Numbered from the stretch's first letter, positions 9,368-42,420 are shown. The stretch is DNA of 64,000 nucleotides from an uncultured Chloroflexia bacterium (GCA_963739395.1 CAVUAE010000002.1:26384-90383); one strand, 5' to 3'. Numbers and translations are program-made. The notes: generated by a model not told the origin, from the sequence alone.

Positions 9368-10453
9368 ATGAAACTCACACCAGAAGAAAGAAGGAAAATA
9401 TACGAGGAAGAAAAAGCCAGATTTGAAGCCAGAGAAAAGCTGGAAGAAGAAAAACGCCGGACATCTCCAGAAAGTACTATCAGCCTTACACCTAATATCG
9501 CCGGTCTTTTATGCTACCTGGGTATATGGGTTACCGGCATTATCTTCTTCATTCTGGAGCAAAAAAACAGATGGGTACGCTTCCATGCCGCCCAGTCGAT
9601 TGTTGTCTTCGGTGGACTGGGTATCCTCAACGCTATACTAGGCTGGATACCTTTTCTTGGTTTGTTCTTTACCGCCATCATCTGGATTTTCGGGTTCATT
9701 CTTTGGCTAATCTTGATGTATAGAGCATATCATGGTGAGTATTATAAACTGCCGTTAGCTGGCGATATCGCCGAGATGATGGTGGCTAATATGCCCCCGA
9801 TTTCACCGCCACCCCCACCTCCACCTCCTCCACCACCTTGGGGACGCGAAAAAGCGACAGCACCGCCAACGCCACCGCCATCTCCCAAGCCGCCTAAGCC
9901 TCCAGCAGCCGCCGCGGGCGTTGTTGAAGAGAAAATCAGCCAAAAGGTAGCTAGACCTTATAGAGTAAGAACCGAACACAGGATGCCAGGTGCAATTGCT
10001 GGCATCGTCTGGAGTGTTATCTTAATCGTGGTTTTCAACTTCTTCCATGAGTACATTGCCTATTATACGTATCACACTGCAACGAAATCATGGTCATGGC
10101 AAACGTTTTTTACCAGTGATATTAATGCCTGGCTGCCGATATTGAACGCCGCACTAGCGATAAGTATTATCAGGTATATTGTCCTTATCTTCGTCGACCA
10201 TAAAATCATCCGTGATTCGATTCTTGTTATCTCCAGAGGATTCAGTCTGGCGGCAATCATCACCCTGTTGATAACATTCCCCTTTAACTTCGATGTGATA
10301 CCCAATGCCGACGCGGCCGGCTGGACGACCTTCGGAGTCAAAGTATTCTTAATCTTCCTTGTCGTATGCTTTAGCATCAGTTTTGTGGTGAGAGGTGTAA
10401 GGCTGCTGGTGGATGCTGTGCAGTCAGCCATACATCCTCATGAAAACGACTAA
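9368..10453 (+). CDS. Multi-pass membrane protein with a DUF4870-like N-terminal module, poly-Pro linker and second TM domain
   Basis: 361 aa. Has YLGIWVTGIIFFILEQKNRWVRFHAAQS (DUF4870-like by recall), a run PPISPPPPPPPPPPPW...PPTPPPSPKPPKPP, and at least 4 further hydrophobic helices. Confidence 0.7.
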   Translation: MKLTPEERRKIYEEEKARFEAREKLEEEKRRTSPESTISLTPNIAGLLCYLGIWVTGIIFFILEQKNRWVRFHAAQSIVVFGGLGILNAILGWIPFLGLFFTAIIWIFGFILWLILMYRAYHGEYYKLPLAGDIAEMMVANMPPISPPPPPPPPPPPWGREKATAPPTPPPSPKPPKPPAAAAGVVEEKISQKVARPYRVRTEHRMPGAIAGIVWSVILIVVFNFFHEYIAYYTYHTATKSWSWQTFFTSDINAWLPILNAALAISIIRYIVLIFVDHKIIRDSILVISRGFSLAAIITLLITFPFNFDVIPNADAAGWTTFGVKVFLIFLVVCFSISFVVRGVRLLVDAVQSAIHPHEND

Positions 10454-10518
10454 TATTGAGGTGCTTTTGGCTGGAATAGTATAATTTGTATAGTAAATCC
10501 GATTCAGGAGGCAACGCT

Positions 10519-11949
10519 ATGACCAAAGATGGAAATTTTATACGGGAAAAAGCCCGCGATACGAAAGTTATCCGCCAGTGCGACGTCGTCGTTGTGGGCG
10601 GCGGTCCGGGGGGTATAGGGGCGGCAGTTTCCGCCGCCAAGAATGGCGCCGATACCGTTCTTATCGAAAGATACGGCTATCTCGGCGGCATGGGTACTGG
10701 TGGACTGGTGACAATTATCCCCCAGCTTACCGATTATACAGGCAAACAGCAAATCGCCGGGATTACACAGGAATGGATTGACCGCTTGATTGCCCGCAAC
10801 GCCGTGGACATGCCGAAGAAAGAACACTGGGGCACACTGGACCCGGAACTCAATAGATATTATTTCGAGCGCAGCTTTTTCTATAGGCGTCTTGACCGGG
10901 TGGTTTATGCCGCTATCATCGACGCCGAAATCTCGAAAATTATTCTTAATGAGATGGTAGAAGAAGCCGGTATTAAAACTTACTGCCACGCCTGGGGCAC
11001 CGAGCCCATCATGGAAGGCAATCACTGTAAAGGCGTCATCATCGAAAGCAAGTCCGGACGCCAGGCTATCCTTGGCAAAGTCGTGATTGATTCTACCGGC
11101 GACGGCGACCTGTTCCCGTACGCCAATATCGATTGCGAAACCGACATTCCAGCGAACTTCCGTATCGCTAACCTCGCCGTCTGCTTCTGGATTGCCGGTG
11201 TCGACTATAAAAAGATAACCGAATTCCGCCAGAATAACATGAAGGGATTCATGGATTTAATGCGTCAAGCCCATGAATACGGTGGTCAGGGCGGTTTTAT
11301 GACCAGCAACCTGCCCGACCAGGAATCGGTGGTCTGGTTCCACAGCCGTTACCCCAACAAGAGCCAGATTGACGTTGAAGAACTGACCCGCGTTGAATTT
11401 CTGGGACATAAAATCGCCGGTAAAACCATTGAATTCTACCGTAAGAACGTACCGGGATTTGAAAAAGCCTTCCTCGTGCTTACCGACCCACAGCTTGGCA
11501 CTCGTTCCAGTCGCCGCATGGTCGGCGAATACTGGCTGACCGAAAAAGACCTTGCTAACAACCAGCCATTCGAAGACACTATCGCCATCTTCCCGGACCT
11601 CGACCGCGGGCAGGATTCTTTAGACCATCCCAATATGTATATCCCCTATCGCGCTTTATTGCCGAAGAACGTGGATAATTTCCTCGTTGCCTGCCGCGCT
11701 TTTTCCTCGGATAAGCACGTCCAGGACTACTTCAACCTAATTCCGCACTGCATCGCTTTCGGCGAAGCCGCCGGCACAGCCTCAGCACTGGCGCTCAAAG
11801 CCGGCGTAGGCGTAAAGAAGGTTGACATCAAGGCATTACAGAAACAGCTTGTCAAACAAGGAGTACCGCTGCCGGATGTTACTAAAAAGGTTGATTATAA
11901 ATATACCGGCCCCGCCTTAGTCGGTCCTTCTTTCACACCGCCGCACTAA
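10519..11949 (+). CDS. FAD-dependent oxidoreductase (FAD_oxidored/GIDA-like family), paralog 1
   Basis: Dinucleotide fold VVVVGGGPGGIGAAVSAA, and IDSTGDGD. Start moved to the ATG at 10519, preceded by AGGAGG; the ORF track begins at 10486. Confidence 0.8.
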   Translation: MTKDGNFIREKARDTKVIRQCDVVVVGGGPGGIGAAVSAAKNGADTVLIERYGYLGGMGTGGLVTIIPQLTDYTGKQQIAGITQEWIDRLIARNAVDMPKKEHWGTLDPELNRYYFERSFFYRRLDRVVYAAIIDAEISKIILNEMVEEAGIKTYCHAWGTEPIMEGNHCKGVIIESKSGRQAILGKVVIDSTGDGDLFPYANIDCETDIPANFRIANLAVCFWIAGVDYKKITEFRQNNMKGFMDLMRQAHEYGGQGGFMTSNLPDQESVVWFHSRYPNKSQIDVEELTRVEFLGHKIAGKTIEFYRKNVPGFEKAFLVLTDPQLGTRSSRRMVGEYWLTEKDLANNQPFEDTIAIFPDLDRGQDSLDHPNMYIPYRALLPKNVDNFLVACRAFSSDKHVQDYFNLIPHCIAFGEAAGTASALALKAGVGVKKVDIKALQKQLVKQGVPLPDVTKKVDYKYTGPALVGPSFTPPH

Positions 11950-14979: not shown

Positions 14980-15603
14980 TTAAGTTGTAACGGTTTTAAG
15001 CGCTTTCTTTACATAGTCATAACCAAGGTCGAAGGCTTTGATGTTAATTTCCCCCACTTTGGCTTTAAAACGTGCCAAAATAGCTTCTTTAGCTGTTTCG
15101 TCTTTAACGGGCATCAGTCCCGTGCCGAATAAAGCCCCCAACATGACTACGTTAGCCGCCTGTAAGCTCCCCGCCTGTTTCGCCAGTCCGCTGGCATCTA
15201 GTGTAATGATACGGTCAGTTACTTTACGCAGCTTTTTGACGATTTCACCCTGCGTAGGATAGCCACTCTGGCCCAGATAAACAGTATAAGGCATAACGGT
15301 AGTGGTATTGAGAACGACCACGCTGTTTTTAGCGAGGTACTGGATATTCCTTAAGGCTTCCGATGGCTCGACGGCGATAAGGACATCACATTTGCCTTCC
15401 GGGGTCATCGGGGCAATTACATCGCCGCCCAATCTCAAGTTACTGAAAACCGAGCCACCCCGCTGCGCCATACCTAAAACCTCCGAGCCTTTGACCGGCA
15501 CGCCACCCCTGACCGCCGCATTACCAAGCAACTCGGATACTAAAACCACACCCTGTCCTCCCACCCCACATATTATGATGTTAATCTCGCTTTTCTTCGT
15601 CAT
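14980..15603 (-). CDS. iorB: Indolepyruvate:ferredoxin oxidoreductase beta subunit (2-oxoacid:Fd OR gamma-type domain)
   Basis: 207 aa. INIIICGVGGQGVVLVSELLG is typical. It lies immediately downstream of iorA, with a 1-nt gap. Confidence 0.85.
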   Translation of the reverse strand: MTKKSEINIIICGVGGQGVVLVSELLGNAAVRGGVPVKGSEVLGMAQRGGSVFSNLRLGGDVIAPMTPEGKCDVLIAVEPSEALRNIQYLAKNSVVVLNTTTVMPYTVYLGQSGYPTQGEIVKKLRKVTDRIITLDASGLAKQAGSLQAANVVMLGALFGTGLMPVKDETAKEAILARFKAKVGEINIKAFDLGYDYVKKALKTVTT

Positions 15604-32123: not shown

Positions 32124-33212
32124 CTACGTTAACATTTCTTTTTTCCGCGACGGGATAACGAAGGACACTACCAGCAAAATAACCCCGGCAACTAGTATGC
32201 CGATGGCAAGAGGCAAGCCAACTGCCGTGACGTCACTAATCAAACCCTCAACCCAGGTATTTAACGCTGGCGATGTTTCCATCCATTTCGATACCCAATC
32301 CATTATCGGCAGCATCCTCACCAGTATGATACCAACCAGGTCGATAATACCGATAATAAGTATGCTAATCCCCAGCGAACGGGCGGGAGTTTTTATACTC
32401 CAGTTAACTAAGAATATTAAACCCACCAGAACAATCAGCAACACAATCAGCCAGATATAGTAGGTCTGGAAATAACCGATGTACTGCCTGACTTGTTGCA
32501 GAGTATGCATAATTCCGCTGTCTATAGAACTTTCATCCATAGTGTAAGAGTCGGGCATTTGGCTGATGAAATCACTAATATACCGGTTGATATATTCATC
32601 TCCCAAGTCCATGTATTGTTGGTCAAGCGGAGGGAAGTCTGGATTCTGTGCTACACCGGCAGAATACCTTAAGAACTGTTCAAGATTTTGATTACGCTCA
32701 TCGGCGGGGAGAGCAGCAAGGTCAGCCGGCATAAGACTTTGAGGGAATTGTTGGATAATATCTTGTATATACTGTGACATTTCCTGGTTGGATTTACCAG
32801 TAAGCTCGTCATGTAGATAATTCTTGGTTTCTTGCCATAAGGTATTTGTCAGATTCGCTTTCAATTCTGAAAGCGGTATGGTAATAGAAAGAGTATTGGT
32901 GTCACCAAGAAAATAATCGTAGCCCGTATCCAGTGCAGTTTTTAACTGTGTTTTTATCCAGGGCTCCTGTTTTTCGATGACATTGTAAGCAACGTCTTTT
33001 AAGAACTCCGCTTGTTGAGGTAATTCTTTGCCAATCTGATTTTCGGCGACATTTCGTGCAATGGAGGATATCGGCAATTTATCCACCTGATTAGAAACGA
33101 AATCATAGCTAAGCACGGTGCCACGTAGCATAAAAGCAAAACAAAAAACCGCCAGAGCTATGAAGAAAATAAAACTGAAAATAAAGGTCGCGAAGCCTTT
33201 TAAAAAGCCCAT
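32124..33212 (-). CDS. Hypothetical membrane protein
   Basis: 362 aa. An N-terminal TM helix, a large extracytoplasmic region and a C-terminal cluster of TM helices. Confidence 0.65.
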   Translation of the reverse strand: MGFLKGFATFIFSFIFFIALAVFCFAFMLRGTVLSYDFVSNQVDKLPISSIARNVAENQIGKELPQQAEFLKDVAYNVIEKQEPWIKTQLKTALDTGYDYFLGDTNTLSITIPLSELKANLTNTLWQETKNYLHDELTGKSNQEMSQYIQDIIQQFPQSLMPADLAALPADERNQNLEQFLRYSAGVAQNPDFPPLDQQYMDLGDEYINRYISDFISQMPDSYTMDESSIDSGIMHTLQQVRQYIGYFQTYYIWLIVLLIVLVGLIFLVNWSIKTPARSLGISILIIGIIDLVGIILVRMLPIMDWVSKWMETSPALNTWVEGLISDVTAVGLPLAIGILVAGVILLVVSFVIPSRKKEMLT

Positions 33213-33305
33213 CTCGTCATCTTCCTAACTAATTATAATACCCTTAGCATTTACGGTGGCATTATTCTATCACATCCAATGTCAAATTACACCTGATACT
33301 CTAGG

Positions 33306-33334
33306 TTGACGAGGAAAAGGGTATCTAGTAGAAT
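33306..33334 (+). promoter_or_regulatory. Sigma70-like promoter of tRNA-Val
   Basis: TTGACG (33306-33311), 17-nt spacer, TAGAAT (33329-33334), 13 nt before the tRNA 5' end. Confidence 0.45.
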
Positions 33335-33347
33335 TACATTGTATTAA

Positions 33348-33424
33348 GGGCGGTTAGCTCAGCTGGTTAGAGCGCCGCGTTGACATCGCGGAGGTCAGTG
33401 GTTCAAGTCCTCTACCGCCCACCA
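33348..33424 (+). tRNA. tRNA-Val (anticodon GAC)
   Basis: GGGCGGT/ACCGCCC acceptor, GCTC/GAGC D stem, CCGCG-TTGACAT-CGCGG anticodon arm, TTCAAGT T loop and an encoded CCA. 77 nt. Confidence 0.95.
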
Positions 33425-33469
33425 TAATGTATAGTAAATAGAACTCCTTTAACTCTAAAGCTTTAACTT

Positions 33470-33504
33470 AGCCCCAATTATCATGGGTTGGGGCTTATTA
33501 TTTT
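33470..33504 (+). terminator. Rho-independent terminator after tRNA-Val
   Basis: AGCCCCAA (33470-33477) pairs with TTGGGGCT (33488-33495), then TATTATTTT. Confidence 0.55.
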
Positions 33505-33535
33505 AACAATCGCCGATTATCCCATAATAGACAAA

Positions 33536-33575
33536 TGTCATAGTTTTGTAACTTCTTTTAGCTCAATTTTATGAT
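33536..33575 (+). promoter_or_regulatory. Pho-box-like operator/promoter, copy 1 (drives the PQQ-propeller lipoprotein gene)
   Basis: TGTCATAGTTTTGTAA (33536-33551), 18-nt spacer, TATGAT (33570-33575). Confidence 0.6.
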
Positions 33576-33654
33576 TATTAGAGCGCTGAATTGTCATCAT
33601 TGATGTAGCCGTTTAGTATCGTGGAGATATCAAAATAGTTGAGGAGGGTTTTTT

Positions 33655-35931
33655 ATGTTTAAATTTATACAAAAATCAGGGGTGATATTGATAACGATTT
33701 TTTTCGCGTTGACGTTATTGTTAGCTTCATGCAGTTCAACGACTAATACATCAGCAACACTACCTGATTCAGACGCTATTCCGTCGGAAATAAACCAGTA
33801 TGCTGCGGATTGGCCACTACCTAATATGGACTACGCTAATACCCGGGCTACGAAAACTTCTAATATAAATTCCGACAACGTGAAAAATCTTGGTGTTGAC
33901 TGGGCTCTGCCGCTGCCGGGTCAGGGAATCTACGGGGCGGCATCGACTACCCCTATTATTATGGGTGATACTGTATATTTCCAGGATTTAGGTAATAATA
34001 TCTTCGCTGTTGACCTGGCGACCGGGACGATTAAATGGAAGGTGCTTTTTAATGAGCCAAATATCGGTCCTAATGGAATTGCCGTAGGCTGGGGAAAAGT
34101 CTTTGGCAGTTCCGACCCATATAATATCGTCGCTCTTGATATGAACACCGGCAAGCAGATTTGGAAAACTCAAATTTCAACCCAGCCGACGACCGGTATC
34201 GATATTCAGCCGAATGTTTATGGAAATGAAGTTTTGGTTTCTACCGTGCCCGGCACCAGCGGCGGCGATTTTTATTCCGGCGGCAGTTATGGCTCTATTT
34301 ATGCTCTGGACCAGATGACCGGCGATATTGACTGGAGCTTTGCTACCGTAGATTCTCCCGGTATCTGGGGTAATAAAGATGTTAATAGCGGCGGCGGTAG
34401 CTGGTATCCTCCGGCTGTGGACGCCAATACCAGTACGACTTATTGGGGAATCGGCAATCCAGCTCCTTGGCCCGGAACCGCAACCTTCCCCAATGGTTCC
34501 AGTCGACCGGGACCCAACCTTTACACCGACTCTATGGTCGCGTTGGACGCACAGACAGGAGAGCTAAATTGGTATACCCAGGTCAATCAACACGATAACA
34601 CCGACGCTGACTTCCAAATATCTCCAATCCTCGCCAAGGCTAATATCAGCGGCGTCCAACAGGATATTGTTATTGGCGCCGGTAAACTGGGTAAAGTAAT
34701 TGCTTTCAACCGTGAGACCGGTGCCATCCTCTGGATAACTAATGTAGGCATACATCAGAATGACCAACTGGCTAATATACCCGAAGAAGGAGTGAGAGTG
34801 TATCCCGGTATTTTTGGCGGTGTGGAAACCCCTATGGCTTACGCCGATGGCATAGTCTATGTGCCAGTGGTCAATCTTTATGCCGAATATATACCAAGCA
34901 CGGTGACCGGAATCCAATCATTCGATACGGGCACTGGTGAACTGGTCGCTATTGACGTAAATACCGGCAAAATCCTCTGGGACAAAACCTTTAACTCCAT
35001 CGATGTCGGCGGAGCAACCGTAGTAAACGATTTAGTCTTCACTTCCACCTTTGATGGCAAAGTATATGCCTTTAAAGCGGCAACCGGTGAACAGGTATGG
35101 ACTTATCAGGCTCCGGGTGCGGTTAACGCCTGGCCGGCTTTCGCTGGAGACACGATGCTTTTACCCGTTGGGCTTGCTTCTCCTTTCCCAGTCTTGATGG
35201 TACTAAAGTTAGGAGCTAATGCACCCAATGTCACCATGTTGCCACTTGATGGTGAAAATATTGAAGCTGGCGACATTACCGTATCCGCAATGGCGCTGAA
35301 TTTCAATCTCGTAGATAAACTTAGCGGCGCTAACGTTGCCGGCGAAGGGCATTTACACTACTTCATGGATGTCGACGCCCCAACAACACCGAATCAGGCG
35401 GCCGTGCCGTCGACAGGTGTTTATTTCGCCACCGCCAATACTTCATATACCTTTAAGAATGTTACGCCTGGCACGCATACCTTCTCGGTAGAGCTGGTTA
35501 ATAACGACCACACGCCATTAGTGCCAGCCGTGGTAGCTAAGGTTACGGTCAATGTGACTACACCAACGCCGAAAATAACAATATCTTTACCGCAGAATCG
35601 TTCCGCAGTAAAGCCCGGTGATATCACGATTAGCGTTCAAGTAAGTAACTTTAACCTTGTCGATAAGATAGGGCAGGCTGCAGTTAGCGGCGAAGGGCAT
35701 ATCATTTACTACCTGGATGTCGTAGCGCCAACTATTGCCGATAAAGCCGCTACTACTGATGCCGGCACTTATGCGGTAACTGCTGCAACTTCCTATACCT
35801 GGAAGAATGTAGCCGCTGGCACACATAACTTCTTTGTCCAGCTGGTAAATAACGATAATACACCGTTAAGTCCGCCGATAGTCGCCAAAATAGTTGTTGC
35901 GGTGACGTCAGCCAGCGGTGGCGGACCTTAA
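33655..35931 (+). CDS. PQQ-dehydrogenase-like beta-propeller lipoprotein with two C-terminal DUF4399-like domains
   Basis: 758 aa. Lipobox LLLASCSS. The N-terminus W..PN.DYANTRATK...NV.NLGVDWA......TTPII.GDTVYF......IFAVDLATGTIKWK is typical of quinoprotein propellers. The C-terminus has two ~116-aa repeats containing GEGHLHYFMD / GEGHIIYYLD. Confidence 0.8.
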   Translation: MFKFIQKSGVILITIFFALTLLLASCSSTTNTSATLPDSDAIPSEINQYAADWPLPNMDYANTRATKTSNINSDNVKNLGVDWALPLPGQGIYGAASTTPIIMGDTVYFQDLGNNIFAVDLATGTIKWKVLFNEPNIGPNGIAVGWGKVFGSSDPYNIVALDMNTGKQIWKTQISTQPTTGIDIQPNVYGNEVLVSTVPGTSGGDFYSGGSYGSIYALDQMTGDIDWSFATVDSPGIWGNKDVNSGGGSWYPPAVDANTSTTYWGIGNPAPWPGTATFPNGSSRPGPNLYTDSMVALDAQTGELNWYTQVNQHDNTDADFQISPILAKANISGVQQDIVIGAGKLGKVIAFNRETGAILWITNVGIHQNDQLANIPEEGVRVYPGIFGGVETPMAYADGIVYVPVVNLYAEYIPSTVTGIQSFDTGTGELVAIDVNTGKILWDKTFNSIDVGGATVVNDLVFTSTFDGKVYAFKAATGEQVWTYQAPGAVNAWPAFAGDTMLLPVGLASPFPVLMVLKLGANAPNVTMLPLDGENIEAGDITVSAMALNFNLVDKLSGANVAGEGHLHYFMDVDAPTTPNQAAVPSTGVYFATANTSYTFKNVTPGTHTFSVELVNNDHTPLVPAVVAKVTVNVTTPTPKITISLPQNRSAVKPGDITISVQVSNFNLVDKIGQAAVSGEGHIIYYLDVVAPTIADKAATTDAGTYAVTAATSYTWKNVAAGTHNFFVQLVNNDNTPLSPPIVAKIVVAVTSASGGGP
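35227..35925 (+). repeat. Intragenic tandem duplication (2 x 348 bp) encoding the DUF4399-like domains
   Basis: GGCGACATTACC at 35269 and GGTGATATCACG at 35617 mark equivalent positions 348 bp apart. The protein repeats align along their full length. Confidence 0.75.
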
Positions 35932-35962
35932 ACAGCAATTAAACCATTTAGATAGGTAGACT

Positions 35963-35991
35963 GATGCAGATACCTGCCATCCGCATCTTTT
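35963..35991 (+). terminator. Rho-independent terminator after the propeller gene
   Basis: GATGCAGAT (35963-35971) pairs with ATCCGCATC (35979-35987) with 1 mismatch, then TTTT. Confidence 0.5.
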
Positions 35992-36077
35992 ATGGTAGAA
36001 GCAGTGCACCTATTGAAGTACAATTATCAGCCAGCGGTATCGGTACAATAATAAATGACCTGGTAACTCTAAAATAT

Positions 36078-36123
36078 ATAATAAAGGGCAGGCTTCTTTA
36101 GCTTTCGCCTTAGAAGCCTGCCC
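36078..36123 (-). terminator. Rho-independent terminator of the cupredoxin transcript
   Basis: 12-bp stem GGGCAGGCTTCT (36086-36097) with AGAAGCCTGCCC (36112-36123). The T-rich tract lies on the minus-strand side. Confidence 0.6.
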
Positions 36124-36356
36124 TAAAGGTCGTTCCACTACTCCTCCCTTTTGGTTTCCTTCGCCAAATGCCCGTTTGAATCGGTCGGGCTTTTCACCAA
36201 TTTACGAGGAGCTCGGGAACCTTCCTGTAAAATGCCCCTTCATATTAATCTTCACATCACCTCACTTCTTTCTTTTCTCTCTTCCCCACCACCCTTATTA
36301 TCATTTTAATTTTAGATAACGTAGTGTTCTGTGACTTTTATCACGACATCAGGAAA

Positions 36357-36911
36357 CTACTGCACCACAAATGTGCCGGTCATGATGGTTGGGTGCACAT
36401 CGCACCGGAAGAAATAGTTACCGGGAGTAGTCGGTGCGGTAAAAGTATAGGTAATTGTTCCACGTCCAATTATTTGGCCGACGAAGATTGAGGTCGAAGC
36501 ATTGGAATTAGTATAAAGGGCGAAGTTATGGGATACGCTGTCTCTATTATCGAAATTAATCGTCACTAAAGCGCCGGCCGAAACCGTTATCGTGTTTTTA
36601 TCAAAAGCCATGTTCTGCGCCACGAGATTAATGGTAACGCTAGCCGGGACTGGCGTCGTGGTAGTTGGCGGGGTTATAGTTGTCGGTGGTGGCGTAATCG
36701 TTGTTGGGGGTGTAGTTGTTGTTGGCAGTGTAGTCGTTGGCGGAGGTGTGGTGGTAGTTGGCGCGGGTGTTGTATTGGTAGGAACAGGTGTAGTCGGGGT
36801 AGGAGCAGGGGTGTTAGTCGCTGTGGTGTAAGCATTACATGCTGTAAGAATAACCAGTGCTACAATAGCTATGATAACCGTAATATAACTAAAACCAATT
36901 CTTTTATTCAT
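36357..36911 (-). CDS. Membrane-tethered type-1 copper protein (cupredoxin, plastocyanin/amicyanin-like) with Thr/Pro-rich linker
   Basis: Lipoprotein-like signal VILTAC, an approximately 60-aa T/P linker and copper ligands H..(N)..C-DV-H-PTIM-M (FFRCDVHPTIMTG). Start moved to MNKRIG (ATG at 36911), behind GGAGA. Confidence 0.85.
   Translation of the reverse strand: MNKRIGFSYITVIIAIVALVILTACNAYTTATNTPAPTPTTPVPTNTTPAPTTTTPPPTTTLPTTTTPPTTITPPPTTITPPTTTTPVPASVTINLVAQNMAFDKNTITVSAGALVTINFDNRDSVSHNFALYTNSNASTSIFVGQIIGRGTITYTFTAPTTPGNYFFRCDVHPTIMTGTFVVQ
36645..36825 (-). repeat. Low-complexity coding repeat (Thr/Pro linker)
   Basis: Reiterated ACC/ACA/CCA codons. The mirror strand gives the spurious Gly/Val-rich ORF 36592..36831. 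Confidence 0.6.
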
Positions 36912-37057
36912 TTTTTCTCCTTCTGTTTTTTGTTTATTTGGTGACATAACTCATACCTCCTCTAACAATATCTCAAGCGGTTATCCCCGCCTCCGGACCC
37001 AAAACACATCTTTAATCATGTTTCTACGTTTAATTTTAAGAGGTAGTGAATAGAATA

Positions 37058-37097
37058 GTTATAAAACGAGGACGAAAAAGATTACAAAATCATGACA
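37058..37097 (-). promoter_or_regulatory. Pho-box-like operator/promoter, copy 2 (drives the cupredoxin gene)
   Basis: Minus strand: TGTCATGATTTTGTAA, 18-nt spacer, TATAAC. Confidence 0.6.
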
Positions 37098-37125
37098 TTT
37101 AATAAAGATATTCTAATTGTAAAAA

Positions 37126-37166
37126 TGACACAATTTTGTAATTATTTCAGAATGCCATTTTATGAC
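37126..37166 (+). promoter_or_regulatory. Pho-box-like operator/promoter, copy 3 (degenerate; drives 37219-37800)
   Basis: TGACACAATTTTGTAA (37126-37141), 19-nt spacer, TATGAC (37161-37166). It sits back-to-back with copy 2. Confidence 0.5.
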
Positions 37167-37218
37167 TTTGGCATTGATTACTGTATAGAATTTTAGAGTC
37201 AGGCTATCTGGAGAGCGA

Positions 37219-37449
37219 GTGAAGATGGTGATGTTAGTTAACGAAAAGAAGGTTGCTGCAGGGTCAGGACGAAAGGCTGCACCTCAAGTTGATGAGGTAC
37301 TGGCATTTTGCCCAGGGTGTAAGGCTCTCCAGACAGTCTGGCTTAATGACAATATGCTAATGCCGACGCGTAAATTTACCCAGGTTGGTAGCCAGATCTA
37401 CCATAACTGCGGCTTTAAAGAACCGTGCCGTTTATACTATACCTCTTAA
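37219..37449 (+). CDS. Small Cys-rich protein (possible zinc ribbon)
   Basis: 76 aa. CPGC...HNCGFKEPC. GTG start. Confidence 0.5.
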   Translation: MKMVMLVNEKKVAAGSGRKAAPQVDEVLAFCPGCKALQTVWLNDNMLMPTRKFTQVGSQIYHNCGFKEPCRLYYTS

Positions 37450-37497
37450 GGCTTGTTACGAATATAAGGAGTCTACGAAAAAGAAAGGTGGCTGAAA

Positions 37498-37800
37498 ATG
37501 AGTGCAAGAGCTTACATGTTACTGGATATCTTGGAAGAAAAATCAGGAGATGCGGTACAAACTTTAAAACACATTACCGGAGTTACCCTCGCCGATACTC
37601 TTGAAGGGCACCCCAATATTCTTGTTATGTTAGAAGCCGCCAACCGGCAAAAGCTGGTTGAACTGATGATGCCTGTGCTTAATGCCATAGATCGGATTAC
37701 CGAGGACCTACATTTATTGGTGAACCGAGAGAACCAATTAGCACCTCGTATTATCGATACTAGTGACGCGGGATTACTACTTAAACATTCGTTAAATTAA
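37498..37800 (+). CDS. Stand-alone Lrp/AsnC-type ligand-binding (RAM-like) domain protein
   Basis: 100 aa. The pattern AYMLLDI...V..L..ITGV.......PNILVMLEA resembles AsnC_trans_reg domains (recall). AAGGTGG RBS. Confidence 0.45.
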   Translation: MSARAYMLLDILEEKSGDAVQTLKHITGVTLADTLEGHPNILVMLEAANRQKLVELMMPVLNAIDRITEDLHLLVNRENQLAPRIIDTSDAGLLLKHSLN

Positions 37801-37903
37801 CGCAGTGAAGTGTTAGACTAGTAAATAACACGGGAATTCTGACTAATATAAAAACCGTTGCTTTTATCTAATAGCGTTGCTTAGAATTTCAATGACCCGC
37901 AGA

Positions 37904-38176
37904 TTATTCCGCTTCAGCTACCTTTTGAGCTAGCTTCTTATTGACTATTATACGATTGCGCTCAATCCTGATTGTGCCATCATTAAACAAAGACTTGAGC
38001 GACAAGTGAACCAAATCCCAGCCTACGCCAAGTGTCGTCGCAATATCCCGCTGCGTCAAGTGGTTATGCTGATTATTGGCATGTTCTAATAATATTTTAG
38101 CCACGTGACTTCTAACCCGGGGCAAAGACCGGTCGTATCCGGCTAGTGTCGTTGATTCTCTATCGAATGTCATCAC
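37904..38176 (-). CDS. Small winged-helix DNA-binding protein
   Basis: 90 aa. LTQRDIATTLGVGWDLVHLSLKSLFNDGTIRI is a wHTH pattern. Confidence 0.6.
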   Translation of the reverse strand: MMTFDRESTTLAGYDRSLPRVRSHVAKILLEHANNQHNHLTQRDIATTLGVGWDLVHLSLKSLFNDGTIRIERNRIIVNKKLAQKVAEAE

Positions 38177-38207
38177 TCTGAAATTCTAATCTGCGGGCGC
38201 TGGAAAA

Positions 38208-38247
38208 GTCATAAAATAGAAGCAATAAATATTACAAAACTATGACA
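38208..38247 (-). promoter_or_regulatory. Pho-box-like operator/promoter, copy 4 (drives the wHTH gene)
   Basis: Minus strand: TGTCATAGTTTTGTAA, 18-nt spacer, TATGAC. Confidence 0.6.
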
Positions 38248-38280
38248 TTCGTAAAGGAGAAATTTAGCAGGAGAAAAGGT

Positions 38281-38982
38281 TTAGTCGGCAGCTTCGTCGA
38301 TGATGTAGCCAGTCTTGGGGACAGTACGAACTAGGGTAGGATGGCTAGGGTCTTGTTCCGTTTTACGCCTTAAGCGGCTCATCCAGGTTCTTAATATCTG
38401 TACGTCGTCACGGTATTCCGGTCCCCAGACTCTGGTCAACAATTCACCATAAAGCATCAACTTACCTCGATTGCGGGCGAGCTCACTTAAGAGGAGCCAC
38501 TCGATACGGGTAAGCTGAACCTCTTTACCATTGACGTTAACTAAGCGGTTTTTGAGGTTGATGGTAACATACCCTAGTGTTATAGAATCGACGACCTTAC
38601 GGTTTTCCTCGGGCTCCAGGCGGCGTCTTACGGCTTCTATCCGGGCAACCAACTCATCGGGATTAAATGGTTTTGCCAGATAGTCATCGGCACCGAGCTT
38701 TAAGCCCTTTATCTTATCGGTATTAGCTTCGCGGGCGCTTAGGATGATAACCGGTATGGAAGATACCGACCTGACTTGCTTTAACGTTTCAAAGCCATCC
38801 ATGCCGGGCATAACGACATCGAGGACAAGCAGGTCTGGTTCTTGCGCTTGAAGCTGAGCCAGAGCTTCCTGGCCGTTATTGGCAGAAAGTACGTCATAGC
38901 CTGAATTTTTTAGCTTCAGGTCGAGAAACTTGAGTATGCGCGGCTCATCATCGACGATGAGGACACGAAATCGTTTGACCAT
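38281..38982 (-). CDS. OmpR/PhoB-family response regulator (REC + winged-helix)
   Basis: FRVLIVDDEP...DLLVLDVVMPGMDG...KP, and a C-terminal trans_reg_C region (LTRIEWLLLSEL...VRTVPKTGY). The ATG at 38982 is preferred over the GTG at 39009. Confidence 0.9.
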   Translation of the reverse strand: MVKRFRVLIVDDEPRILKFLDLKLKNSGYDVLSANNGQEALAQLQAQEPDLLVLDVVMPGMDGFETLKQVRSVSSIPVIILSAREANTDKIKGLKLGADDYLAKPFNPDELVARIEAVRRRLEPEENRKVVDSITLGYVTINLKNRLVNVNGKEVQLTRIEWLLLSELARNRGKLMLYGELLTRVWGPEYRDDVQILRTWMSRLRRKTEQDPSHPTLVRTVPKTGYIIDEAAD

Positions 38983-39081
38983 ACCGTCCTGCTGAATTGA
39001 GTTGTACACAAATAATAATTGCCGGCGTAGAGAATTGTCAACTATTAAACTTTATTCCCTGCGCCGGCAGTTTCCCTTTAT

Positions 39082-39690
39082 TTATGGTTTTTGCTGTCCA
39101 AAATAGCCGTTATAAGTACTATAAACTCTGGAAACCAGTTCACCGGCATTAGGATTTTGCCAGTCATGCATCCATTCCGATACGACTTGCATCCAGGTGC
39201 AGGGCACAACACCCGCTTGTATCATACGTTTTATCGCCATCTCATGAGCATCTTTAGATTCCGATGAAGCGGCATCCATGACACCGTAGACACAAAAGCC
39301 TTCGCGTAAACCACGCAGCGCTGTGAAAGCCATGCACATACTGGTCCACAGCCCCGAAAGCACCAGCTGTTTCCTGTTGGTTTTCTTTACGGCGCTGAAA
39401 ACGTCTTTATCTTCGAACGCATCGAAAGAAGGCATTTTACGGTCGATGACGGTAATACCGGGGAACATCTCGACAATTTCCGGTAGGAATGCCCCGTTCA
39501 TTTTGGCGTTGATGGTAGTCAGTACGGTAGGCACTCCCAGAATTTCGGCGCCTTTCGCTAGCGCCATAACGCTGTTTTTCACATAGGTAGGGTCAACAGC
39601 GCTGGCACCCCAGAACATTCTTGCCTGGTAGTCTACCAGTAATAGAACGCTGTTTTTGGCGACTAAGGGGTCTAAAATTGTATTTTCCAT
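39082..39690 (-). CDS. Isochorismatase-family cysteine hydrolase
   Basis: 202 aa. VLLLVDYQ and SGLWTSMCM (catalytic Cys context). GGAGGAGG RBS. Confidence 0.85.
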   Translation of the reverse strand: MENTILDPLVAKNSVLLLVDYQARMFWGASAVDPTYVKNSVMALAKGAEILGVPTVLTTINAKMNGAFLPEIVEMFPGITVIDRKMPSFDAFEDKDVFSAVKKTNRKQLVLSGLWTSMCMAFTALRGLREGFCVYGVMDAASSESKDAHEMAIKRMIQAGVVPCTWMQVVSEWMHDWQNPNAGELVSRVYSTYNGYFGQQKP

Positions 39691-39757
39691 TTTACCTCCT
39701 CCGAGTATTAATGTGTGGTTTTAACCATTAATAATGTATATCCGGGCACATTGAATA

Positions 39758-39797
39758 GTTATAAAGTTGGGTTGTTAATAATTACAAAACTATGACA
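39758..39797 (-). promoter_or_regulatory. Pho-box-like operator/promoter, copy 5 (drives the isochorismatase/OmpR-RR operon)
   Basis: Minus strand: TGTCATAGTTTTGTAA, 18-nt spacer, TATAAC. It shares TTTATAACTATTCA with copy 2. Confidence 0.6.
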
Positions 39798-39833
39798 AAA
39801 TATCTAACTTGTTTTAAAGCCGGCAACCGAAAA

Positions 39834-39873
39834 TGTCATAGATTTGTAATGTATTTTATGTGTTTTTTATGAT
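39834..39873 (+). promoter_or_regulatory. Pho-box-like operator/promoter, copy 6 (drives the CheY-like gene)
   Basis: TGTCATAGATTTGTAA (39834-39849), 18-nt spacer, TATGAT (39868-39873). It sits back-to-back with copy 5. Confidence 0.6.
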
Positions 39874-39956
39874 ACTTTGATTTTGTACAAGGTATAATAA
39901 GGATAATCAATTTAAGATGCTACTGATAAAAAAAAATAGGGGTCTGAATAGCATTT

Positions 39957-40328
39957 ATGGTTGAACCAGATAAGAAAAAATTAGTCCTGGTGGTTGATGA
40001 CCATCCCCGTGTTCTGACTTTTATTGAGATAGATTTAAAACTTCGCGGCTTTAATGTTATCACCACAAGCGCCGGTGAGAAGGTTCCGGAGTTAGTAAAA
40101 TCAGCTAAACCGGATATTGTGCTTTTAGATATGGTGATGCCGGTAATGGATGGTTTTGAGATATTAAAGAAAATACGCGCCTTTTCAGATTTACCAGTAA
40201 TTGCTTTCAGCGCCAGTCCGGGGAATCAGGATTTAGCCTTGAACGCCGGCGCGAATGATTTTATGCATAAGCCTTTTGACCCTGATGACATGGTCAAAAA
40301 AATCAAAGAGCTTTTAAAACAAAAATAA
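39957..40328 (+). CDS. Single-domain (CheY-like) response regulator
   Basis: 123 aa. LVLVVDDHP...DIVLLDMVMPVMDG...KP. Confidence 0.85.
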   Translation: MVEPDKKKLVLVVDDHPRVLTFIEIDLKLRGFNVITTSAGEKVPELVKSAKPDIVLLDMVMPVMDGFEILKKIRAFSDLPVIAFSASPGNQDLALNAGANDFMHKPFDPDDMVKKIKELLKQK

Positions 40329-40329
40329 G

Positions 40330-42420
40330 CTATCCTGACTTAATATAAACAGGTAATGAGAAATAGAAGGTAGAACCTTTACTTGGCTCTGATTCAACCC
40401 AAATTTCCCCACCTTGTGCTTCAACCAGTCGCTTGCAGACAACTAGCCCCAGCCCCAGTCCCTGTTTTGCTGCTTTACCTAACCGTTCAAATGGTTCAAA
40501 AATTCTAGCTTTGTCTTCTACTGATATGCCGATGCCTTTATCGGCTATCCCGATGATGATTTTGTCGTTCTTTTTTTGCGCCAGGACTTTTATTTCGCTG
40601 CCTTCGGGGGAGTATTTAACAGCGTTTTCTAAGAGATTATAAATAATCCTCTCCACCCGCATTGAGTCAGCTTCTACCGATGGCAGATTATTCGGAAATT
40701 CGATATGAAAACTATACCCTTCAGCACGGGGTTTTAATTTCTCGATTACGTTTTTTGTTATAAGCGATAAATCAACAGCTTCACGATAAATCTGGAGACG
40801 GCCGGTTTGATACCTCGAGAGTTCCAGCAAGTTTTCCAGTATTGCCGAAAGCGCTCCGGCGCCTTCGATGGCGTTTTCTAGTAAGATTTGTTTATCCTTA
40901 GCTGATATTCCTTCCGAAATTGCTGTCTTTAGCGAACCGGTAATCACCGTCATCGGCGTACGTAGCTCATGGGAGACGAGCCCAATGAATTCGTCCTTCA
41001 TTTGTTCAACTTTTTTACGTTCGGTTATATCTTGTCCTTGTGCTATGGTGGCAATTACTGTCTTGCCGTCTGCCGCATAAAGGTTAGCCGAGTTCCATAG
41101 CAAAATGCGGACGGTACCATCTTTATGAATGATAGGAATCTCTATCACTTCCCACCGCTCGCCAGAAGTAGCCTCCCGGATGTGTTGCATCGATTTATTA
41201 TGGCTTTCGCCTGGGAACAAGATATCCAATTTTATCCCGATTACTTCATCCGATGTACGCCCTGTTAGACGTTCAAAGGCATGGTTGAAGCGCGTGATTT
41301 CGTAATTCGGATTCCAGACGATGATAGGAGCATTGGCATAATTGAACAGATTATCGAGGTAATCGCGGGTTTCACGGAGTTCACTGGTGCGTTCTTCAAC
41401 ACGAGTCTCCAGTTTAGTCTGACTTTCACGTAAAGCTGCCTGTGCCCTTTTTTGTTCGGTAATATCGATACCCATTTCCATGATAAGAGGAGAGCCATCT
41501 GTATCTTTGAAAGGGAAATCATAAATATCATAATTGCGACCATCAGGGCCGGTCCATTCCCAATGATGCGGTGCATTTGTCTTTAAAACTTTATAAGTTT
41601 CACATTTTTCACATGGTTCATTACGATTAAATAGATATTCAAAACAGCGTTTGCCACGGGATTCGCCGAAGTGCTCTCTGAAAAAACGGTTCGCAAAGGG
41701 TACATGATAATCCGGCGATAAAAGTATTACATAAACCGGCAGCATTTCCAGAACGTCATCAAACCGCTTCTTTTCGGTGTTGATGGCCTCCCGAGCTCGT
41801 TTGTGTTCCGAAATTTCCCCTTGTAAAGCCTTGTTTACTTCAGCCAGTTCTTTGGTACGCTCCTGAATGCGTATCTCTAGTTCCTCTTGAGCTTTGCGTA
41901 GAGCCTCCTCGTCTTTTTTATGCGCAGCTATTTCATCATTCAATTCGAGGTTGGTGTTTTCCAATTCGGCAGTCCGCTGTTTTATCAGGTCTTCAAGGTG
42001 CTCACGGTAAGAAATAAGTTCCGTCTCATGCTGTTTGCGAACAGCGACTTCCTTTTTAGCTTCTTCGGTCTTTTTACGCAGGTTATGCGATAGATAGCTG
42101 ATAATCAGACCCACGGCGAAAAATACCAGAGAAATCGGTATGATGTCGATATTAAAGGTAAAAGTGTTGATAGGCGGGAGAAAAAAGTAATCATATGCCG
42201 CCAAACTTAAAAGACAACATAAAATAGATGGAACTAGCCCGAAGAGGGTAGCAGTAAGAACGATAGCTAATATGTATAAAATAGGTATATCAGAAGGTAT
42301 TATTTTAGGTTGTGCAAGCTGCTTTAGCCATGTAGCTAAAGCCACTGTTCCTATAGCGAAAACATAGCCGAACCACCTAGAGTTTATTATTAAGCGGTAG
42401 ACGTTTTTAACAGTTTTCAT
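40330..42420 (-). CDS. Sensor histidine kinase: DUF4118-like TM module, coiled coil, two PAS domains, HisKA, HATPase
   Basis: 696 aa. H-box VSHELRTPMT, and N/G boxes NLLENAVKYS, DKGIGI, GLGLGL. The first PAS domain carries C-x11-C-x2-C (CFEYLFNRNEPCEKC). Confidence 0.9.
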   Translation of the reverse strand: MKTVKNVYRLIINSRWFGYVFAIGTVALATWLKQLAQPKIIPSDIPILYILAIVLTATLFGLVPSILCCLLSLAAYDYFFLPPINTFTFNIDIIPISLVFFAVGLIISYLSHNLRKKTEEAKKEVAVRKQHETELISYREHLEDLIKQRTAELENTNLELNDEIAAHKKDEEALRKAQEELEIRIQERTKELAEVNKALQGEISEHKRAREAINTEKKRFDDVLEMLPVYVILLSPDYHVPFANRFFREHFGESRGKRCFEYLFNRNEPCEKCETYKVLKTNAPHHWEWTGPDGRNYDIYDFPFKDTDGSPLIMEMGIDITEQKRAQAALRESQTKLETRVEERTSELRETRDYLDNLFNYANAPIIVWNPNYEITRFNHAFERLTGRTSDEVIGIKLDILFPGESHNKSMQHIREATSGERWEVIEIPIIHKDGTVRILLWNSANLYAADGKTVIATIAQGQDITERKKVEQMKDEFIGLVSHELRTPMTVITGSLKTAISEGISAKDKQILLENAIEGAGALSAILENLLELSRYQTGRLQIYREAVDLSLITKNVIEKLKPRAEGYSFHIEFPNNLPSVEADSMRVERIIYNLLENAVKYSPEGSEIKVLAQKKNDKIIIGIADKGIGISVEDKARIFEPFERLGKAAKQGLGLGLVVCKRLVEAQGGEIWVESEPSKGSTFYFSLPVYIKSG

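Follow-up and report, generated by a model that had tools for sequence, protein, structure and literature searches.

We analysed a 64,000-nucleotide stretch of DNA from an uncultured Chloroflexia bacterium (GCA_963739395.1, CAVUAE010000002.1:26384-90383; hereafter referred to as the window and numbered from its first letter), in which a short direct-repeat box recurs six times in front of a cluster of genes for redox-type proteins, small proteins, a hydrolase and regulators. The cluster also holds an OmpR-family response regulator and a sensor histidine kinase, and comprises the following features:

33655-35931, plus strand: PQQ-type beta-propeller lipoprotein with a C-terminal DUF4399 match, putative regulon member
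36357-36947, minus strand: cupredoxin-domain lipoprotein with a long Thr/Pro-rich linker after the lipoprotein signal, putative regulon member
37219-37449, plus strand: Cys-rich protein of 76 amino acids (CxxC...C-x5-C)
37498-37800, plus strand: protein of 100 amino acids
37904-38176, minus strand: winged helix-turn-helix (wHTH) protein of 90 amino acids with a Crp-like HTH (HTH_Crp_2), predicted to be box-controlled
38281-38982, minus strand: OmpR/PhoB-family response regulator, candidate binder of the box (REC PF00072, 1.5e-33; Trans_reg_C PF00486, 1.5e-17; KdpE-like DNA-binding domain)
39012-39041, minus strand: predicted box-independent promoter of the regulator, TTGACA-N18-TATTAT, about 60 bp before the start codon
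39082-39690, minus strand: isochorismatase-family (YcaC-like) hydrolase, putative regulon member
39957-40328, plus strand: CheY-like stand-alone receiver, predicted to be box-controlled
40330-42420, minus strand: sensor histidine kinase, presumed cognate, with a DUF4118 membrane domain, PAS domains, HisKA and HATPase

Most of the labels given to these genes in an earlier sequence-only reading were confirmed by Pfam and NCBIfam; the two small proteins of 76 and 100 amino acids had no match in either database.

With up to three mismatches, the box TGTCATAGTTTTGTAA matches the window exactly six times, at 33536 (+), 37097 (-), 37126 (+), 38247 (-), 39797 (-) and 39834 (+), against 0.49 matches expected from dinucleotide-preserving shuffles, none of 100 of which reached six. 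Copies 1 to 6 carry 0, 2, 3, 0, 0 and 1 mismatches, respectively, and the spacer between box and the downstream TATGAY or TATAAC measures 19 nt in copy 3 and 18 nt in each of the others. All six were thus re-found at the coordinates, strands and spacings that the sequence-only reading had given, and copies 2/3 and 5/6 form back-to-back divergent pairs, as it had described. When the copies were aligned with 60-100 nt of flank, likeness was confined to aaaTGTCATAGTTTTGTAAt and TTTATrAY. Because the flanks are without similarity and could not be aligned, a long dispersed repeat or mobile element is ruled out: the six sites are short regulatory motifs, and instances of one motif. A position weight matrix (PWM) scan found no additional copy in the window; the PWM assumes an 18-nt spacer and therefore recovers five copies, copy 3 having been confirmed by pattern searches. 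An Rfam search of 33000-40500 matched tRNA-Val alone, with no known RNA element at the boxes.

In all six copies, a TAnAAT-like hexamer, overlooked in the sequence-only reading, lies 19 nt 3' of TATGAY/TATAAC. A promoter scan of the window also listed ATGACT-18-TAGAAT at copies 3 and 4 and ATGATA-18-TATAAT at copy 6. Box, proximal element and predicted -10 together delimit six composite promoters:

Promoter 1, 33533-33600, plus strand, PQQ-propeller lipoprotein: box 33536-33551, proximal TATGAT 33570-33575, predicted -10 CATCAT 33595-33600; PWM score 52.8
Promoter 2, 37033-37100, minus strand, cupredoxin: box 37097-37082, proximal TATAAC 37063-37058, predicted -10 TAAAAT 37038-37033; PWM score 67.2
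Promoter 3, 37123-37191, plus strand, Cys-rich 76-amino-acid and 100-amino-acid proteins: box TGACACAATTTTGTAA 37126-37141, 19-nt spacer, proximal TATGAC 37161-37166, predicted -10 TAGAAT 37186-37191
Promoter 4, 38183-38250, minus strand, small wHTH protein: box 38247-38232, proximal TATGAC 38213-38208, predicted -10 TAGAAT 38188-38183; PWM score 75.9
Promoter 5, 39733-39800, minus strand, isochorismatase-family hydrolase: box 39797-39782, proximal TATAAC 39763-39758, predicted -10 TACATT 39738-39733; PWM score 47.3
Promoter 6, 39831-39898, plus strand, CheY-like receiver: box 39834-39849, proximal TATGAT 39868-39873, predicted -10 TATAAT 39893-39898; PWM score 39.3

One genome per species was then scanned with the composite pattern TGTCAYNNTTTTGTAA-N17-19-TATNAY (matching and ortholog loci are numbered with the prefix L). 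Among the exact matches listed, 75 loci belong to Chloroflexi/Dehalococcoidia, spread over at least 54 species-level assemblies, all of them metagenome-assembled. Of the 78 sites listed for this group, 74 have an 18-nt spacer, compared with 14 of the 44 listed matches from other phyla (Fisher p = 9e-14), in which spacers of 17, 18 and 19 nt occur 14, 14 and 16 times, a chance-like distribution. The sites are intergenic: 6 of 115 fall inside a stop-free stretch of at least 100 amino acids, as opposed to 18 of the 44 chance matches. Within one genome they can be far apart (at 0.96 and 1.85 Mb in JBGLNK01; on three contigs in CAZNSC01), and the regulon is thus wider than the window cluster. The sequence-only reading, which had described the regulon from this cluster, with a copper/quinoprotein pair among its targets, gives way here to class-wide sites in front of stress genes. 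Conservation of box and gene set in relatives, which it had proposed to look for, was found in the ortholog loci, and the composite pattern itself occurs in at least 54 Dehalococcoidia/Chloroflexi assemblies. Promoter 5 has orthologous sites in L002, L204, L063 and L076, and the CheY orthologs in L004, L206, L207 and L210 are preceded by weaker box variants.

The architecture of the promoter became apparent from an alignment of 83 Dehalococcoidia sites anchored on the box. The half-sites TGTCAT (positions 1-6) and TGTAAY (positions 12-17), separated by N5 and repeating with an 11-bp period, were fixed or nearly fixed by the search. Other conserved stretches were not demanded by it: a T-tract after each half-site, AAA 5' of the box, yTTTT 3' of it, ATTT before TATGAC, and the TAnAAT hexamer, which is fixed at positions 60-65 (T 74/83, A 81/83, A 67/83, A 62/83 and T 80/83 for its specified bases) and begins 19 nt downstream of TATGAY/TATAAC across the 83 sites. 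Between the end of the repeat (positions 1-17) and this hexamer there are 42-43 nt. TAnAAT is an ordinary -10 form here, as the tRNA-Val promoter in the window reads TTGACG-17-TAGAAT. The last base of TATGAC is a C in 73 of the 83 sites; a sigma-70 -10 hexamer ends in T (position -7), and C is the conserved fifth base of the -35 hexamer TTGACA, so that TATGAC is better read as a -35 than as a -10.

The start codons of the wHTH genes point in the same direction. Exactly 6 nt separate TAnAAT from the first start codon in each of nine loci, one of them the window, although the N-terminal protein sequences are poorly conserved; in promoter 4 it is the GTG at 38176 (followed by an ATG at 38173) on the minus strand. 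A fixed distance of this kind suggests a leaderless mRNA at the canonical distance from the -10, and the wHTH mRNA is, from its predicted start, leaderless or provided with a 3-nt leader. The same 6-nt distance is seen in L009, L019, L036, L044, L063, L071 and L121, and public gene calls begin the wHTH gene at internal ATGs (L204) or miss it (L207, near 15240-15530).

We are thus highly confident in a predicted layout in which TAnAAT is the -10, aTGACt forms the -35 region with an 18-nt spacer, and the direct repeat occupies about -71 to -55 (if flanking bases are counted, -74 to -50). This revises the sequence-only geometry throughout: TATGAY/TATAAC, which had been taken for the -10, moves to the -35 region; the second half-site, which had been placed over the -35, moves upstream of it; and predicted transcription starts fall about 7 nt after TAnAAT, at about 37198, 38176 and 39905 for promoters 3, 4 and 6, instead of about 7 nt after TATGAY/TATAAC. 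The notion of a Pho-box-like operator survives in part, as an 11-bp-phased direct repeat of the OmpR/PhoB type, but the upstream position is KdpE-like and the geometry is not that of a Pho box. There is a likeness between the proximal element TATGACTTTT and the second half-site TGTAACTTTT, and the regulator might also occupy the former, more weakly, over the -35. A distant subgroup (L006, L049 and L054; regulator 56% identical in L049 and L054) carries TGTCATT.TTTTGTAA-N18-TATTAT before genes for HEAT-repeat proteins, which suggests lineage-specific drift of the proximal element.

Several strong associations tie the box to the OmpR/PhoB-family regulator encoded at 38281-38982. Hundreds of its orthologs, at 75-89% identity, are found in Dehalococcoidales metagenome-assembled genomes (MAGs), which assigns the window to this group. 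Strong box sites are present in eight of nine loci (window included) picked solely for an ortholog of the regulator. In five loci (L002, L004, L204, L206 and L124) a site lies about 45 bp past the regulator stop codon irrespective of the next gene, the genes 3' of this regulator-adjacent box varying among DJ-1, GlgC-like, rhodanese and flavodoxin-like ones. About 25 of the 73 box-selected 8-kb blocks hold a regulator ortholog. As a negative control, we used 80 loci from a metagenome scan for the regulator protein with family-generic back-translated patterns, 79 of which hold paralogs or partial receivers; 767 kb around paralogous OmpR-family genes contained no site, except on one short Dehalococcoidia-like CheY contig. 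Orthologs ranging in identity from 89% to 56% all carry the recognition-helix stretch WGPEYRDD(V/I)QILRTW.SRLR.K without change; the paralogs in the same loci differ there. The nearest solved DNA-binding domain is that of Escherichia coli KdpE (3zq7 and 4kfc; E = 3.5e-15), of which arginines R193 and R200 are both conserved in the window regulator. Against NCBIfam, the regulator scores below every equivalog cutoff (in bits, score/cutoff: RpaB NF045944, the best, 210.3/330; MtrA 197/300; KdpE NF007820 172.8/325; PhoB TIGR02154 171.1/296.2; NF053854 156/270).

In L002, L004, L204, L207 and L210, as in the window, the kinase gene adjoins those for the CheY-like receiver and the regulator; it has no box upstream. 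The ortholog contigs have a module in common, made up of the kinase gene, a divergently oriented CheY-like gene, in some cases an isochorismatase gene, the regulator gene and then a small gene. The features of an OmpR/PhoB-family two-component regulon are therefore present (REC and Trans_reg_C domains, a syntenic kinase and a motif that tracks the regulator ortholog), binding itself being predicted. On this evidence of association, the regulator is likely to be the protein that binds the box. It probably acts there as an activator.

The regulator gene appears to be expressed from a promoter of its own (39012-39041), which, together with its 5' leader, is kept in 9 of 9 ortholog loci. In those scanned ortholog loci that lack an isochorismatase gene ahead of the regulator, no strong box was found in front of the regulator. 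Box 5 would serve the isochorismatase gene; transcription from it could continue into the regulator gene, but this is not required. The sequence-only reading had cast the regulator as an autoregulated master: it stands as the best candidate binder, whereas the case for autoregulation is weak. The leader between promoter and start codon contains a conserved TTTG.GTGCAG...CAGGA (window, up to 38982; L002, L004, L204, L206, L207 and L209, about 9938-10000), and the promoter spacer (T/C)CC(C/T)GTA(C/T)CTG is partly conserved, hinting at a further operator. Around the regulator -35, a strong inverted repeat of 11-14 bp is found in four of the nine loci (window about 39020-39075, minus strand; L002, L204 and L206, about 9915-9975). 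Its arms vary between loci yet stay complementary, and a role as terminator or insulator behind the preceding gene is conceivable; RNAalifold found no consensus structure in the isochorismatase-regulator interval of the nine loci, and the stem was not used as evidence.

Taken together, we interpret the six sites, with moderate confidence, as upstream operators belonging to a class-wide two-component stress regulon of the Dehalococcoidia, which the OmpR-family regulator would activate. A number of observations weigh against this interpretation. L209 (JGI Ga0566189_0000017; regulator at 10001-10702, 78% identity) has no box within 10 kb of its regulator ortholog. The predicted -10 of promoter 1, CATCAT, is the weakest of the six, and this promoter is overlapped by an alternative TTGTCA-17-TAGTAT at 33591-33619. 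The composite pattern matched at least 119 loci, which makes both the size of the regulon and its taxonomic range lower bounds. The wHTH gene is so tightly linked to the box that its product could be the binder or a co-binder. Finally, conservation around the proximal element exceeds what a plain -35/-10 promoter needs: in addition to ATTT, positions 41, 43 and 44 are conserved T (about -31, -29 and -28), and position 47 (about -25) is A in 81 of the 83 sites (for example, A47 at window position 38201, minus strand), which could mean that the regulator sits over the -35, possibly repressing. With regard to L209, its recognition helix and own promoter are unchanged and the kinase and CheY neighbours are absent; it may be a relocated or orphan copy. 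With regard to promoter 1, the same box is accompanied by a TATAAT -10 at the PQQ ortholog in L004.

The last of these observations opens the best of the alternatives, namely that the same regulator binds but represses, its occupancy of the proximal TATGACTTTT, alone or with the distal repeat, blocking the polymerase until dephosphorylation derepresses the promoter. The resemblance of this element to the half-site TGTAACTTTT would fit such a mode, as would the conservation of T41, T43-44 and A47 and a near-consensus -10 from which the promoters might fire unaided. However, the best-conserved part of the site lies at -74 to -50, where KdpE activates, and a non-consensus -35 (aTGACt or aTAACt) with an 18-nt spacer is typical of activator-dependent promoters; we consider repression unlikely.

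Slightly less probable still is that the 90-amino-acid wHTH protein binds the box, instead of or together with the regulator, and is the real master, autoregulated from promoter 4. Its gene is the commonest one directly downstream of the box (12 of 108), always at the fixed leaderless distance, and GTCATA (positions 2-7) and TATGAC (positions 35-40) form an inverted pair. What is conserved is nonetheless an 11-bp direct repeat, characteristic of OmpR-family tandem dimers, and the inverted arms, 27 bp apart, are too distant for a small wHTH dimer; moreover, the box stays by the regulator gene when other genes follow, and neither L004 nor L206 yielded a wHTH homolog.

The rigid spacing and the conservation from -74 to -7, with T-tracts every 10-11 bp or so, would also fit an alternative-sigma promoter class or a generic UP-element-like enhancer without a dedicated regulator, but the -10 has the ordinary TAnAAT form seen in the tRNA-Val promoter, and the motif, physically tied to one regulator gene, is absent at housekeeping genes, both within the window and across the related loci. 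The two possibilities, the second of which the sequence-only reading had itself raised, are very improbable.

Least probable of all is that reading's own class II, Pho-box-like operator, with a half-site as the -35, TATGAY/TATAAC as the -10 and a start near A47, for although TTGTAA-N18-TATGAY fits the sigma-70 pattern at 9 of 12 positions and A47 after pyrimidines looks like a start site, the proposed -10 mostly ends in C, TAnAAT follows at a fixed distance with the wHTH starts 6 nt beyond it, the regulator falls below the PhoB cutoff (171 versus 296 bits) and there are no phosphate targets among the recurrent downstream families.

KdpE binds 6-bp direct repeats, TTTATA-N5-TTTACA, at -72 to -50 of kdpFABC through R193 and R200 (PMC3264566). 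The window sites likewise consist of 6-bp repeats with a 5-bp gap and would occupy much the same position if transcription starts 7 nt after TAnAAT; the DNA-binding domains are alike, with both arginines conserved, and the window kinase shares the DUF4118 membrane domain of KdpD. However, the window regulator is no KdpE equivalog (172.8 versus 325 bits), its kinase has PAS domains and is without the KdpD N-terminal and Usp domains, there are no kdpFABC or other kdp genes in any locus examined, and the targets are many instead of one operon. The half-sites differ as well (TGTCAT/TGTAAY versus TTTATA/TTTACA); their reverse complement, GTTACA/ATGACA, is similar, and the orientation may be opposite.

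The sequence of the repeat has other relatives. PhoB belongs to the same family and shares an 11-bp-phased repeat with a TGTCA core and an A/T-rich tract after each half. The Pho box, however, takes the place of the -35 and stops about 10 bp short of the -10, whereas the present repeat ends about 43 nt before it; the regulator scores under the PhoB cutoff, and the targets are stress genes. The E. coli redox regulator ArcA binds direct repeats of TGTTA with an 11-bp period, frequently at least three in tandem, and mostly represses from sites overlapping promoters. It resembles the window system in family, in its TGTnA-N6-TGTnA repeats with extra units at some sites and in a redox-linked regulon, but there is no orthology (ArcA is absent from the 25 best NCBIfam matches of the regulator), its kinase is of another type and it is mostly a repressor. 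RpaB of cyanobacteria, partnered by Hik33, provides the best NCBIfam model and, like the window regulator, is a very highly conserved, lineage-wide stress regulator; the match nevertheless falls short of the cutoff (210.3 versus 330 bits), and the HLR1 repeat bound by RpaB has a period of 10 bp. The DosR regulon of mycobacteria, rich in Usp and Hsp20 genes, is a functional analogue, but DosR is a NarL-family protein with a palindromic binding site. By analogy, the window system appears KdpE-like in domain, repeat period and operator position, with a repeat sequence nearer those of PhoB and ArcA. A literature search that included the literal sequence in both orientations found no description of the motif; the system is apparently undescribed, although it belongs to a well-known kind of regulator and operator.

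The genes behind the box were surveyed by scanning the main open reading frame (ORF) downstream of each of 108 distinct sites against Pfam. The recurrent families were as follows:

HTH_Crp_2 (wHTH): 12 of 108 ORFs, the commonest directly downstream of the box
GlgC-like NTP transferase: 9 of 108
Usp, HSP20, Rhodanese and PQQ propeller: 4 of 108 each
DJ-1/PfpI, AhpC-TSA peroxiredoxin, ODP di-iron oxygen-binding protein, HEAT-repeat protein and cupredoxin: 3 of 108 each

No ribosomal, tRNA or phosphate-uptake genes are among the recurrent families (the 25 commonest Pfam families of the 108 ORFs), and the window cluster contains no phosphate genes, in agreement with the sequence-only reading, which had set the targets apart from phosphate genes. 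Judged by these annotations, the regulon is a stress-defence set of oxidative or redox flavour rather than a phosphate one. The signal is likely to be oxidative, redox or general stress, and we give the oxidative or redox kind an even chance. The PQQ-propeller protein, in which two similar C-terminal DUF4399-type segments can be seen (with one Pfam match), and the cupredoxin are redox-type proteins located outside the cytoplasm of what is presumed to be a strict anaerobe. Both are again targets of the box in L004, L096, L110 and L035. The Cys-rich protein (about 75 amino acids) and the 100-amino-acid protein recur as a box-controlled pair in about ten related loci (L004, L011, L036, L044, L063, L121 and others). 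An exact-protein look-up of the window isochorismatase returned no record.

The ~70-bp composite promoter is made up of the distal repeat aaaTGTCATAgTTTTGTAAy (predicted at about -74 to -55), the proximal ATTTTATGACTtTT over the putative -35 (aTGACt), an 18-nt spacer and what appears to be a housekeeping -10, TAnAAT. In the mechanism that we propose, the kinase at 40330-42420 would sense cytoplasmic or membrane stress through its PAS and DUF4118 domains and phosphorylate the regulator, the KdpE-like winged helix of which would bind the repeat as a dimer in head-to-tail arrangement, with the proximal element as a possible additional site. From an upstream position like that of KdpE, the bound regulator would activate sigma-A RNA polymerase at promoters whose -35 is weak and whose spacer is 18 nt long. 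The regulator itself would be produced from its own constitutive promoter, and feedback would most likely be provided by two box-controlled products, the CheY-like receiver and the wHTH protein with its predicted leaderless mRNA. The former may be a phosphate sink or modulator that competes for phosphate; the latter may be a second-tier regulator that adds another regulatory layer. Residues 256-289 of the kinase (window 41554-41655, minus strand) form a PAS segment with C-x12-C-x2-C followed by HH (GKRCFEYLFNRNEPCEKCETYKVLKTNAPHHWEW), which could be a metal, Fe-S or redox-sensing site. As a universal redox sensor this Cys motif was dropped, the PAS module being present in four of six orthologs and the others having a different inserted PAS.

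More tentatively, the system could be the master regulon for stress or dormancy in the Dehalococcoidia, and would then be the first global regulon to be defined in this largely uncultured lineage: a near-invariant KdpE-like regulator acting on a rigid tripartite promoter of distal repeat, proximal half-site over the -35 and TAnAAT, with a two-tier wHTH/CheY cascade, might govern O2 and redox defence together with sugar-nucleotide and storage metabolism in strict anaerobes. If so, di-iron oxygen-binding proteins, peroxiredoxins, DJ-1, cupredoxin and PQQ-propeller proteins would come under one regulator. Dehalococcoidia are abundant in the subsurface, in marine sediment and at contaminated sites, and are mostly uncultured; beyond a few dehalogenase operons, we know of no transcriptional regulation that has been worked out in them. 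A recognisable promoter signature would yield a list of co-regulated stress genes from any MAG and markers of stress state for metatranscriptomes, and one recombinant protein provides a direct target for binding assays on this signature. The placement of the -10 matters here, as the earlier geometry would put transcription starts and reporter designs 25 nt too far upstream. The mechanism would be an unsurprising one; the value of the finding would lie in a clean, class-wide regulon in a little-characterised lineage.

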